Origin: a virus
Reading direction: 5' to 3' (one strand)
Virus record (IMG/VR): IMGVR_UViG_3300025141_016305
Span: 96,001 to 160,000 of that record
Length of the DNA stretch: 64,000 bases
Program-made: the position numbers and the translations under genes
Part shown: in pieces, positions 51,672 to 54,978 of the stretch
Position numbering within the stretch: position 1 is the stretch's first letter
Layout: every line of letters begins with the position of its first letter
The notes under the pieces: generated by a model
What the model saw: the letters and a program-made list of their open reading frames with translations, nothing else
Databases searched by the model: none
Told to the model about the DNA's origin: nothing

Positions 51672-51748
51672 TGGTGGGCCTCCGCGGACTTGAACCGCGA
51701 ACCTGCCGGTTATGAGCCGGATGCTCTAACCTATTGAGCTAGAGGCCC
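51672..51748 (-). tRNA. tRNA-Ile2 (anticodon CAT, lysidine substrate)
   Basis: GGGCCTC...TCCGG-CTCATAA-CCGGC...GGTTCAAGTCC...GAGGCCC-ACCA. Has C4:G69 and C5:G68, lacks initiator features, and sits next to tilS. Confidence 0.9.
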
Positions 51749-51769
51749 GATACTTATTTATACCAAACA

Positions 51770-52372
51770 TTACTTATAAATTTCAATTAATTTTTTTCTA
51801 ATTGTTGTCCTCAGCCCGGGATTGACCACTAATACTTGAGGTAAAATATTTATTCTTGTATGATTTCTCATAAAATTTAAATGAGAATTAGAAGGGTCTT
51901 GAATCCAAGAAACTTTTTTTTTAATTGCATAATCTTTTATCGTTTTTTTATTTGTCATCAAAAACGGTCTAAAAATATTCTCACCTCTTTTATAGGGTAT
52001 TAGACGGCCATGGCCATGCAAACTTGACATAATCCAAGTTTCTACGCAATCATCGAGGTGATGACAAGTAATAATAAACCTACTACCAAGATTGTTGAGG
52101 AAATCATATCTTTCGTCTCTCCAAAACTCTTCTAAAGAACGCTTGCCTTTAACTCCATTGACCCTACCAATAATTAGTTCTAGTTTATTCTCATTTGCAT
52201 AGTTTTCAACAAATTCTTGAGCTTTTTGCGAATGATTCGTGTCATGATTAAAGTAAGCTAATTTTATTCTTCTTTTTCCCTGCTTGAGAAAATGAGCGAA
52301 AACCATCGAATCAATGCCGCCAGAACATGCAATAGTTACATTTCTAGGGATTTTTCCAATTATACGTATCAT
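51770..52372 (-). CDS. tilS: tRNA(Ile)-lysidine synthetase, minimal (catalytic domain only)
   Basis: PP-loop CSGGIDS, RDERY, CHHLDD..ET, RPFL, DPSN....RN..R; 200 aa. Confidence 0.92.
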   Translation of the reverse strand: MIRIIGKIPRNVTIACSGGIDSMVFAHFLKQGKRRIKLAYFNHDTNHSQKAQEFVENYANENKLELIIGRVNGVKGKRSLEEFWRDERYDFLNNLGSRFIITCHHLDDCVETWIMSSLHGHGRLIPYKRGENIFRPFLMTNKKTIKDYAIKKKVSWIQDPSNSHLNFMRNHTRINILPQVLVVNPGLRTTIRKKLIEIYK

Positions 52373-52623: not shown

Positions 52624-52650
52624 CTCCCAACAAGAGAAAAGTTGGTGGAG
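52609..52650 (-). repeat. tmRNA-3'-end/promoter repeat, copy C (degenerate)
   Basis: 16-bp exact match AGAAAAGTTGGTGGAG (52635-52650) to 53672-53687, followed on the minus strand by GGGAGATGTTTA...ATG. Confidence 0.8.
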
Positions 52651-52662
52651 AGGGTGGGTTTC

Positions 52663-53649
52663 TTACCAGGTAGAGAGAGCAGACCGCTTCCAAGTATTTG
52701 TCGCGACACAAACATAGACATAGTTTGTATCCCAGCAAATCATCCCGGCTGTGCCTGTGGCTGTGGCGCTAGCTGGAGTTTGCGAATCTCTGAGTCTTAT
52801 CGCGTCTGCGTCGATATCCAACACTTCTGTCGGAGAGGTTGTGCCAATACCGACCTTTGGCGCGCCATAAGCATCATATTTAAATGTCATAACATCTATA
52901 GGAGTACCGGTTGGGGCTTGTTGAATTACAAGATTGTTTGAATCATTGTGCAAAGCCCAATCTACAAATCCGTGCCTATCGTTTTGGAGGACAATCCAAT
53001 TTTCACCATCGTTTCGGGAATGGACCGACAATATTCCGTTACCATAGTTGTTGAATGAGTTGATCGACACTGTTTCACCAAACGTATGTGTAGTTCCATC
53101 TTCAGAGGTTATATGAAGACTAGATTCGGTACCATCTAGTTCTTGAGAACTCCACAAAGCAACCTGACCATCGGTAGGAGCATATACCTCTTTAACGGAT
53201 ATCGAATCAATTGAAAAAGCGGTGGAAGAACCTATTGAGCTTATCTCTAGAGACGTGCCGCCGGCCTTTATCAGTTGGGTATATGTATTTGCGCCGTTCC
53301 CACCAATGTATGTTGGCGAAGTACTTGGCGAAACATTGCCAAGCTTCACCATCATATTTGAAGCAGTTGTTACGTTGCTGATTGTGAATTGAATTAAGTA
53401 CAAGGTACCAGATGATACCCCCGACAATGTTTGGGTTAAAGCGCTGTACGTGTAACCAGAACCGGCGGACTTAGTTAATTTTCCGGAGTCATAAGCCCAA
53501 TCAGTCCCTAACGACCAACTGCTAGCATCACTATCAAAAGTCCCATTTGTGACCAGTTCGGTACCTAAATCGGTTGTACCAAGCTTTATACTTTTTGTAA
53601 TTGCTTCTGACCAACCTATTTGTTCTACATCTAGTTTTGCTCTAGCCAT
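52663..53649 (-). CDS. Tail-fibre/receptor-binding-like protein with carbohydrate-binding-like module
   Basis: ELVTNGTFD...W...IDSISVKE module, KVGIGTTSP repeat, C-terminal GMICWDTNYVYVCVATNTWKR; late-promoter motif upstream. Confidence 0.7.
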   Translation of the reverse strand: MARAKLDVEQIGWSEAITKSIKLGTTDLGTELVTNGTFDSDASSWSLGTDWAYDSGKLTKSAGSGYTYSALTQTLSGVSSGTLYLIQFTISNVTTASNMMVKLGNVSPSTSPTYIGGNGANTYTQLIKAGGTSLEISSIGSSTAFSIDSISVKEVYAPTDGQVALWSSQELDGTESSLHITSEDGTTHTFGETVSINSFNNYGNGILSVHSRNDGENWIVLQNDRHGFVDWALHNDSNNLVIQQAPTGTPIDVMTFKYDAYGAPKVGIGTTSPTEVLDIDADAIRLRDSQTPASATATGTAGMICWDTNYVYVCVATNTWKRSALSTW

Positions 53650-53661: not shown

Positions 53662-53679
53662 CTCCAATATTAGAAAAGT

Positions 53680-53989
<310 letters not shown>

Positions 53990-54085
53990 TTAACAGCAAC
54001 CACTCTTGCAAGTGCAACACCCGCAACAGCAGCAGCAATGTTTTGAATTAAATAAATTAACCAATCTATGCAATAAACCTTTCAT
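53990..54085 (-). CDS. 31-aa Cys-rich micropeptide MKGLLHRLVNLFNSKHCCCCCGCCTCKSGCC, missing from the ORF track
   Basis: AAGGGGG Shine-Dalgarno-like sequence before the ATG; 10 Cys in the last 15 residues using mixed TGC/TGT codons; stop abuts the tmRNA 5' end. Confidence 0.65.
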   Translation of the reverse strand: MKGLLHRLVNLFNSKHCCCCCGCCTCKSGCC

Positions 54086-54108
54086 GATAATTACCCCCTT
54101 TTAAGTAA

Positions 54109-54978
54109 TTACCACTCTTCTGGAAAATTAGTCTTAAGAAAATTTAGTGCTCTCTCTTTTTGAGCTTGAGTTTCCCAGGAATATTCTTCGTCTCCTGTTG
54201 TTCTGGGTATTATGTGCTCTACTTTTGAATGGGGATTAAAATCTAGCTTTAAACTTTCATCTTTTCGCACCCTATAAGACCATTCTATGTCATCTCCATA
54301 ATAATGAAGCAAATCTTCGTTAAGTGGATACTTTTCCCATGCGGCTTTTTTACCTACAGTATAATTCCCGTCAAAATATTGATGTCTAGTAAAGGATTTT
54401 TGATCATATGGTAACAACATCCTCTTTGGTAGTGTCGGATGATCCCACAAAATCCAGTCCCTATATCTTTCCCCAGAAATTGTATGTTTCACATTCCAAC
54501 AAAAATCCCAATCATATCCAAATTTATTAAAACCATTGAACCAGTCTTTATCAAATTTATAATAATCATGAAAAATAACCACATTCTCATATTTTGCATT
54601 TTGCCAAATAAGATTCTTCTTTTTGGTTGTCCAACCACTCTTAATACCCGGGTGTTTTCTTTTATTTATATCTAACTTCTTTACAACATATTCTTCGGAT
54701 TTTTCATCTTTTATAGAGAGTCCGTTTCTTAGTTTTAAGAAACTGTCGTCTTTAATCCAATCTGTTTGATCGTCAAAAGGGATATGTTTAACATCTCCAA
54801 AAGCATGTAGGCGGTATGCATTGCGGCCATTTTTTGGATACGGACCTCCAACTATAATGATTTCATATTCCGGAATATTCAAATTTCTTATTGAGTCCAA
54901 TATCGTTAATATCTTATCTCTCCAAGCTAAATGATTTTCATTTTCGCTAGCTACCGTTGGAAAACCAAATGTCCACAT
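54109..54978 (-). CDS. GT-A fold glycosyltransferase-like protein
   Basis: YEIIIVGG, KKN....AKYENVVIFHDY, DDIEWS; GGAGA Shine-Dalgarno. Confidence 0.65.
   Translation of the reverse strand: MWTFGFPTVASENENHLAWRDKILTILDSIRNLNIPEYEIIIVGGPYPKNGRNAYRLHAFGDVKHIPFDDQTDWIKDDSFLKLRNGLSIKDEKSEEYVVKKLDINKRKHPGIKSGWTTKKKNLIWQNAKYENVVIFHDYYKFDKDWFNGFNKFGYDWDFCWNVKHTISGERYRDWILWDHPTLPKRMLLPYDQKSFTRHQYFDGNYTVGKKAAWEKYPLNEDLLHYYGDDIEWSYRVRKDESLKLDFNPHSKVEHIIPRTTGDEEYSWETQAQKERALNFLKTNFPEEW

Follow-up and report, generated by a model that had tools for sequence, protein, structure and literature searches.

A polycysteine microprotein gene in direct contact with the tmRNA gene of a distant T4-like phage

Introduction

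The metallothioneins, among them bacterial SmtA and BmtA and the small fungal Cu-thioneins, are very small proteins in which about one third of the residues are cysteine, arranged in CC and C-x-C spacings and with histidine beside the cluster. Metal-thiolate clustering is the expected chemistry for a cysteine arrangement of this kind, and an invariant phenylalanine together with two histidines is atypical for the classical members. In the precursors of two groups of RiPPs, the streptolysin S-type TOMMs (SagA) and the SCIFF ranthipeptides, a Cys-rich C-terminal segment comes after an N-terminal one; RiPP cores are usually variable. A different kind of arrangement, the tRNA punctuation of animal mitochondrial transcripts, was reportedly described by Ojala, Montoya and Attardi in 1981: there the reading frame runs up to or into the first base of a tRNA-like gene, so that cleavage by RNase P fixes the 3' end of the mRNA.

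In mycobacteria, polycysteine leaderless sORFs have been described as attenuators, in which an operon opens with a short, Cys-codon-dense ORF (Canestrari et al., bioRxiv 10.1101/834739). The tmRNAs of marine myophages (Melnitz and the pelagimyophages) are two-piece and have been described with a glutamine riboswitch (PMC9004378). The 5' end of tmRNA is matured by RNase P, as a passage of PMC3985003 sets out.

Here we describe a 31-codon polycysteine gene whose stop codon touches the first base of a phage tmRNA gene, and we compare it with each of these systems. It lies in a stretch of viral DNA of 64,000 nucleotides, positions 96,001 to 160,000 of IMG/VR virus record IMGVR_UViG_3300025141_016305, which is called the window below.

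Results

Carrier phage and locus

The virus record is 175 kb long and 96% complete (IMG/VR). The carrier is a distant T4-like myovirus with gp23, and its best cultured capsid match, at 47% identity, is to a Flavobacterium phage. Neither SmpB nor tRNA-Cys is present in the phage genome. In being a large marine T4-like phage with its own ssrA and no SmpB, the carrier resembles Melnitz and the pelagimyophages, but it differs from them in its one-piece tmRNA and in the source of that capsid match, and for these two reasons an assignment as a pelagimyophage with a two-piece tmRNA was rejected. The features of the locus, in the order of transcription, are as follows.

54109-54978, minus strand: upstream gene of 289 aa, the last of a sugar-modification operon, with its stop 23 nt before the microprotein ATG (ORF list)
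54094-54100, minus strand: Shine-Dalgarno-like AAGGGGG, 8 nt 5' of the microprotein ATG
53990-54085, minus strand: polycysteine microprotein gene, 31 codons, 10 Cys and 2 His (ORF list and sequence)
54083-54085, minus strand: start codon ATG of the microprotein (sequence)
54038-54085, minus strand: codons 1 to 16, conserved amphipathic N-terminal helix ending with the invariant His16 (alignments A1 and A2, AF2, pN/pS)
53993-54037, minus strand: codons 17 to 31, cysteine cluster C5-G-CC-x-C-x3-CC (invariant columns in alignment A2)
53990-53992, minus strand: stop codon TAA of the microprotein (sequence); the next base, 53989, is tmRNA G1
53680-53989, minus strand: one-piece tmRNA gene, with G1 as the base after the microprotein stop (ARAGORN; Rfam RF00023)

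The 31-residue peptide with ten cysteines that a preliminary description of this DNA had pointed out is thus encoded at the locus, as are the Shine-Dalgarno-like site and the two upstream GTAATTA motifs noted there, and the contact of its TAA with tmRNA G1 holds with a boundary that ARAGORN and Rfam RF00023 set independently. The GTAATTA copies lie at 54088-54094 and 54106-54112 on the minus strand; given 6 matches in the whole window, the pair is locally unusual, and it was not seen in those upstream sequences of relatives that were printed. The sequence GTAATTAC at 54105-54112 is a perfect palindrome that overlaps the stop of the upstream gene, and the second GTAATTA falls 18 nt downstream of it, between the Shine-Dalgarno site and the ATG.

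The product consists of a 16-residue N-terminal part and a 15-residue part that holds the ten cysteines. Across all six frames of the whole 175-kb genome, the micro-ORF is the sole frame with at least 8 Cys per 16 residues (it has 10, and the next best has 7). An AF2 monomer prediction of moderate confidence (pLDDT 66) places a helix at residues 2 to 11 only. A complex prediction with four peptide copies and zinc scored 0.02; the model yields no answer there and weighs neither way.

Conservation and selection

The family search was a scan of viral contigs for the back-translated cysteine cluster. The signature H-C5-G-CC-x-C was found in 85 viral contigs, all except one of which hold clear homologues of 31 to 49 aa; since the search patterns fix the cysteine cluster, divergent members are under-sampled, and the locus counts given throughout are not phylogenetically independent. 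The homologues have a common layout of start codon, conserved helix, invariant His and C5-G-CC-x-C, usually with a GGAGG-like site before the start, and a purine-rich stretch resembling GGAGG or AGGAG occupies the Shine-Dalgarno place in most of those printed. In alignment A2 the residues invariant across the family include His16 and Gly22, Phe12 is nearly invariant, and His6 is conserved along with His16.

A check for frame conservation and synonymous variation in relatives, which the preliminary description had called for, showed that the frame is kept and that synonymous change is abundant. Among the eleven members of 31 codons, the mean pS is 0.88, near saturation, against a pN of 0.175, and TGC and TGT are mixed at every Cys position but one. 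The N-terminal 14 codons were tested separately because the search pattern fixed only the cluster and not this segment. Over 75 distinct sequences, these codons have a pN/pS of 0.38 when read in frame, compared with 0.72 and 1.58 when the frame is shifted; their third positions vary most, with a variability of 0.43 against 0.26 and 0.20 at the other two.

These values bear on the simplest alternative, that the ORF arose by chance or is a TGC/TGT microsatellite in a non-coding tmRNA leader. Many looser matches to a C5-G-CC pattern are indeed repeats or noise from other frames, but about 85 homologues conserve start, Shine-Dalgarno site, stop and length, with codon-periodic variation and low pN/pS, and the microsatellite reading is refuted by purifying selection, in frame, in N-terminal codons that the search pattern did not fix. 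We regard a chance origin as barely credible, and on this comparative evidence the 31-codon ORF is a real coding gene kept by selection.

Several members depart from the common form. The C terminus is extended by a basic stretch that contains an R-G-R-P (AT-hook-like) motif at L288:12876-13022, L291:12470-12616 and L297:7050-7193 and in P0001 and P0002. On the minus strand of L272, a degenerate tandem second polycysteine copy, with neither the helix nor the C-terminal Cys residues, precedes both the intact copy, by about 140 nt, and the tmRNA.

A generic scan of viral tmRNA 5' ends gave a first relative, L087, in which a different Cys-rich mini-ORF abuts a related tmRNA, and a motif scan of the tmRNA clade gave L134, which has a clear homologue of the micro-ORF 4 nt before its tmRNA. 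A second micro-ORF family of the CKCCKCC-x-C type, 13 to 26 codons long, is present at 48 loci in viral contigs, and may be a helix-less relative of the 31-aa family. Examples of its CKCCKCC-x-C-x-C... ORFs, to which about 45 further loci are to be added, are the following.

L087:1025-1090, minus strand: second-family micro-ORF
L352:1354-1407: second-family micro-ORF
L398:1008-1061: second-family micro-ORF

Representation in databases

The micro-ORF peptide has zero matches in Pfam (E values up to 10), PHROGs, NCBIfam and a profile search of the PDB. A profile search of 1.84 billion representative proteins returned 8 hits only, a collection of 15 billion predicted proteins lacks the exact peptide sequence, and those few relatives that have been called are nameless; gene callers almost never call family members. 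Searches of GenBank phages by blastn and tblastn with the locus, two other family loci and two peptides gave nothing usable, in a setting where the low-complexity filter may hide peptide matches, and the ESM Atlas held no usable match for the peptide. Close relatives sought in viral contigs through the neighboring 289-aa protein numbered zero, and no relevant report of polycysteine or metallothionein-like peptides in phages was found in the literature searched.

In prokaryotes, a scan of 185,579 species genomes for the signature returned 8 matches; two of these are true members, both from marine MAGs that also hold a T4-type major capsid gene. These MAGs, L330 and L332, are labelled Halobacteriovorax and Candidatus Pelagibacter; they are probably phage contigs binned with bacteria, the capsid gene of L332 apparently sharing a contig with the phage island. 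As judged from these sequence searches, the polycysteine family is unannotated, phage-only and restricted to large uncultured marine T4-like phages.

Nature of the product

Metallothioneins are recognized by low mass and at least about 20 to 30% Cys in CC or C-x-C spacings, and the peptide, with 10 Cys in 31 residues arranged as C5-G-CC-x-C-x3-CC, has this composition; like them it is very small and has a His beside its cluster. It does not share their scarcity of aromatic residues, having the nearly invariant Phe12 as well as His6 and His16, and it differs from them further in its amphipathic helix and its phage-only occurrence. No sequence match to metallothionein or Fe-S families was found in Pfam, NCBIfam or the PDB. 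Metallothionein-like metal binding, a putative property deduced from the residue pattern, is compatible with the data. A role exerted at the level of the protein is suggested by the conserved helix, His16 and Gly22, by the variants with an RGRP tail and by the variety of the downstream genes. The invariance of His16 and Gly22 is not explained by a mere loading of Cys codons, the RGRP-tailed members point to a product that acts as a protein, and the changing downstream neighbor argues against a dedicated target in cis.

The same layout lends a superficial fit to a RiPP precursor, in which a leader, here the conserved 16-residue N terminus, would precede a Cys-rich core opening with five Cys and matured to thiazoles, as in streptolysin S, or to thioethers, as in the SCIFF ranthipeptides. 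A RiPP-like precursor had been one of the readings first offered for the peptide, together with the remark that no maturase is visible in the window. The remark extends to the whole genome, where neither YcaO nor a radical SAM enzyme was found, and it is the reading that suffers: the YcaO cyclodehydratase (PF02624) is absent from the carrier's own, 96% complete genome and from 21 other carriers, so that 0 of 22 genomes hold one, although host-encoded enzymes are possible. Radical SAM (PF04055), absent from the own genome, is present in 2 of the 21 others, and the adjacent radical-SAM/SPASM maturase that accompanies SCIFF precursors was not found. The precursor families in NCBIfam and Pfam are unmatched, no conserved enzyme neighbor was found, and the supposed core is invariant. 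We consider this reading very unlikely.

Contact with the tmRNA gene

The tmRNA gene belongs to RF00023, matching the full model (1-374) with 127.2 bits (E = 1.4e-50) against a gathering threshold of 47. Its tag peptide, as given by ARAGORN, ends in ALAA, and its acceptor stem shows a G3:U pair; a scan for the same tag elsewhere found zero. That the peptide is encoded in the tmRNA 5' leader, as first described, is literally true here but only through promoter-less packing of genes: across relatives of this tmRNA clade an upstream ORF, of whatever kind, ends within a few bases of G1 and leaves no room for a promoter, and in this window no promoter-like or terminator-like site was found between the upstream gene, the micro-ORF and the tmRNA.

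The upstream sugar operon, the micro-ORF and the tmRNA would then lie on one polycistronic transcript, and an RNase P cut at G1, directly after the TAA, would free the tmRNA from the mRNA. The resulting mRNA would end exactly at the stop codon. In L087, L125 and L135, the TAG stop of the ORF 5' of the tmRNA takes tmRNA G1 as its third base; here the cut would destroy the stop and leave a message lacking a complete one, and an mRNA end at or in the stop codon might favor trans-translation. The likeness to mitochondrial punctuation lies in a reading frame whose end abuts a tRNA-like gene or overlaps its first base, so that the RNase P cut would set the mRNA 3' end. The differences are that this is a bacterial virus, that the tRNA-like element is a tmRNA, that the TAA in the window stays intact and that the processing here is a predicted one.

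Direct contact between the ORF and a tmRNA is a minority arrangement, yet a recurrent one. ARAGORN found a same-strand tmRNA within 1.53 kb downstream at 11 of 88 member loci and at L253, which is counted as a twelfth case and ends inside its tmRNA. The gaps are 0 (this window), 4, 5, 15, 34, 398, 455, 492, 774, 775, 1127 and 1529 nt, and whole-contig data add a thirteenth nearby tmRNA at about 1.7 kb. In the second family the gaps are -1, 5 and 5 nt, with two more loci at 495 and 721 nt. Two subtypes of the peptide show placement near the tmRNA, the tmRNAs concerned have tags of several types, and such placement is far commoner than the roughly 1% that we ourselves estimate for a gene at a random position in a 150-kb genome. 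Of the 62 family-1 loci whose downstream sequence reaches 1.5 kb or more, 51 have no tmRNA nearby. A full tmRNA is present in 16 of 21 large carrier contigs, including all nine that are at least 90% complete, and in 15 of those 16 the polycysteine gene and the tmRNA are 20 to 140 kb apart.

These placements speak for a cysteine-sensing leader, in which translation of the Cys-dense ORF would report the supply of Cys-tRNA and pausing would alter expression or processing downstream, of the tmRNA here and of Isc or CysK genes elsewhere. In its favor are the short gaps of both families, the lack of a phage tRNA-Cys, the many loci where the ORF stop overlaps or nearly touches the next start, and a parallel with the Cys-metabolic operons of the mycobacterial attenuators (bioRxiv 10.1101/834739). 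Like these, the phage ORF is short, dense in Cys codons and 5' of other genes, and in some relatives it heads genes for cysteine or Fe-S metabolism, being followed by cysK in L304 and L134, at 6 nt in the former, and, in the case of a family-2 ORF, by iscU at 11 nt in L345. In this genome the elements that follow are a tmRNA and a tail-fiber-like gene, and most downstream genes in the family encode Cys-poor proteins of unknown function that are unrelated to cysteine.

The phage ORF differs from the mycobacterial ones in several further respects. It is operon-internal and has a Shine-Dalgarno site instead of a leaderless start. The downstream element in the window is an RNA gene and not an RBS, and no structure of the attenuator kind, which sequesters the downstream start until a paused ribosome opens it, was found; the region has no significant RNA structure (z = -0.35 against shuffles), and complementarity between ORF and tmRNA, assessed at 7 loci, is no better than for codon-shuffled ORFs. 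Conservation of the first 16 residues, His16 and Gly22 at the protein level and the existence of variants with added C-terminal domains also count against a leader, as does the distance of the tmRNA in most loci and genomes. The coupling of a leader to tmRNA maturation, which the preliminary description had suggested, is therefore not general, while the Isc and CysK context gives cysteine sensing some ground; we keep the leader as a live rival that is nonetheless unlikely.

Accessory island and other neighborhoods

Downstream of the tmRNA, the window continues with the following features.

52663-53649, minus strand: tail-fiber-like gene of 328 aa, starting 30 nt past the tmRNA 3' end, its C terminus matching PHROG tail proteins
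52627-52667, no strand assigned: partial duplicate of the tmRNA 3' end and trailer, 76% over 41 nt in comparison with 53664-53704
51672-52372, minus strand: TilS (PP-loop) gene with tRNA(CAU), at the far end of the same accessory island (synteny)

The two copies of the 41-nt repeat bracket the tail-fiber-like gene. In L131, a homologue of this gene is placed between the microprotein gene and the tmRNA, and this opposite-side position suggests cassette shuffling by recombination at the repeat.

The island has a recognizable order in relatives, namely cupin, polycysteine gene, sometimes a small MPKFY-type gene, tmRNA, IscA/IscU, sometimes a CysK-type PLP enzyme, and TilS with tRNA(CAU). This genome retains the polycysteine gene, tmRNA, TilS, tRNA and cupin; IscU and CysK are absent from anywhere in it, and the Isc and CysK genes have been lost from its island. 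A fuller version is seen in L134, where the peptide gene is followed, across the 4-nt gap, by tmRNA, IscU, IscA and CysK, with Pfam NifU_N, Fe-S_biosyn and PALP confirmed.

L134:4025-6794: island with peptide gene, tmRNA, IscU, IscA and CysK (synteny table)

Genes of thiol or Fe-S metabolism recur around the peptide gene in relatives, as in L134. The cluster at L304:119-1183 runs from a thioredoxin-like gene through the peptide ORF to the CysK-like gene, and in L234 and L271 IscU is directly upstream of the peptide gene. IscA, IscU and often a CysK-type PLP enzyme follow the tmRNA of this clade in L134, L087, L130, L131, L127, L332 and L064; in L127 they do so though no polycysteine ORF is near, and in L064 the same set stands beside a two-piece tmRNA. 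IscU occurs in 4 of the 21 other carrier genomes, and with the own genome lacking both IscU and CysK, any Fe-S link cannot hinge on phage Isc genes.

Outside this clade, the commonest neighbor is a gene whose product has an N terminus resembling K-x-x-L-x-x-I-I-x-E-E. About half of the loci (32 to 39 of 77) have such a next gene, against 100 of 1132 background ORFs, and the stop and start often overlap. The products are otherwise unrelated, 64 to 617 aa long and Cys-poor. Examples are the following.

L264:5363-5782: neighbor with K-x-x-L-x-x-I-I-x-E-E-like N terminus
L279:8000-8578: neighbor with K-x-x-L-x-x-I-I-x-E-E-like N terminus
L311:1533-2246: neighbor with K-x-x-L-x-x-I-I-x-E-E-like N terminus

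A further group of downstream genes opens with an E-N-W-R-x-Y motif. Clustering of the neighbors revealed no universally co-occurring enzyme.

The common N terminus of the downstream genes may be a shared targeting or processing signal, and its enrichment favors a protein role that is not centered on metal storage; the peptide might, for example, inhibit a host protein or serve as its adaptor, or it might belong with its leader-bearing neighbors and be associated with DNA or packed inside the virion. The RGRP-type basic tail of a subset, a feature read from sequence, would suggest DNA binding. Against such a role, 8 of 10 neighbor proteins tested have no PHROG match and the other 2 fall only in families of unknown function, the peptide has no L/I-x-E site of the prohead-protease kind, and the simplest reading of the invariant Cys/His/Gly pattern is that of a ligand set. 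We judge this alternative possible but rather unlikely.

Discussion

The reading that we favor, and to which we give about half of our confidence, is that the locus encodes a translated phage microprotein, a putative holder of a metal-thiolate or Fe-S cluster, whose message would share a transcript with the tmRNA until RNase P parts the two. The peptide would be a miniature metallothionein-like protein or an Fe-S or sulfur carrier. A metal-thiolate or Fe-S binder is our best guess because the invariant pattern is ligand-like and the recurrent neighbors are thiol and Fe-S genes.

A wider proposal joins the polycysteine micro-ORF, the phage tmRNA and the Isc and CysK genes in a single "cysteine-shortage" module, in which the ORF would gauge Cys-tRNA and RNase P would leave a leader message ending at or inside its stop codon, a substrate for trans-translation. 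We think this improbable; if true, it would connect the rescue of ribosomes with the synthesis of cysteine and the assembly of Fe-S clusters while the phage infects sulfur-limited marine hosts.

Although proteins so small are almost never called in phage genomes, this family is common among large marine phages, and the constraint on it is strong. Should the peptide bind metal or Fe-S, viruses would take part through it in the trace-metal or sulfur economy of the ocean, with its gene placed beside phage copies of IscU, IscA and cysteine synthase. Should it prove to be a tmRNA-coupled cysteine sensor, viruses would have their first case in which amino-acid sensing by the ribosome is joined to ribosome rescue. 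In either case, two kinds of polycysteine micro-ORF repeatedly touch phage tmRNA genes, and this offers a testable handle on why phages carry tmRNA.
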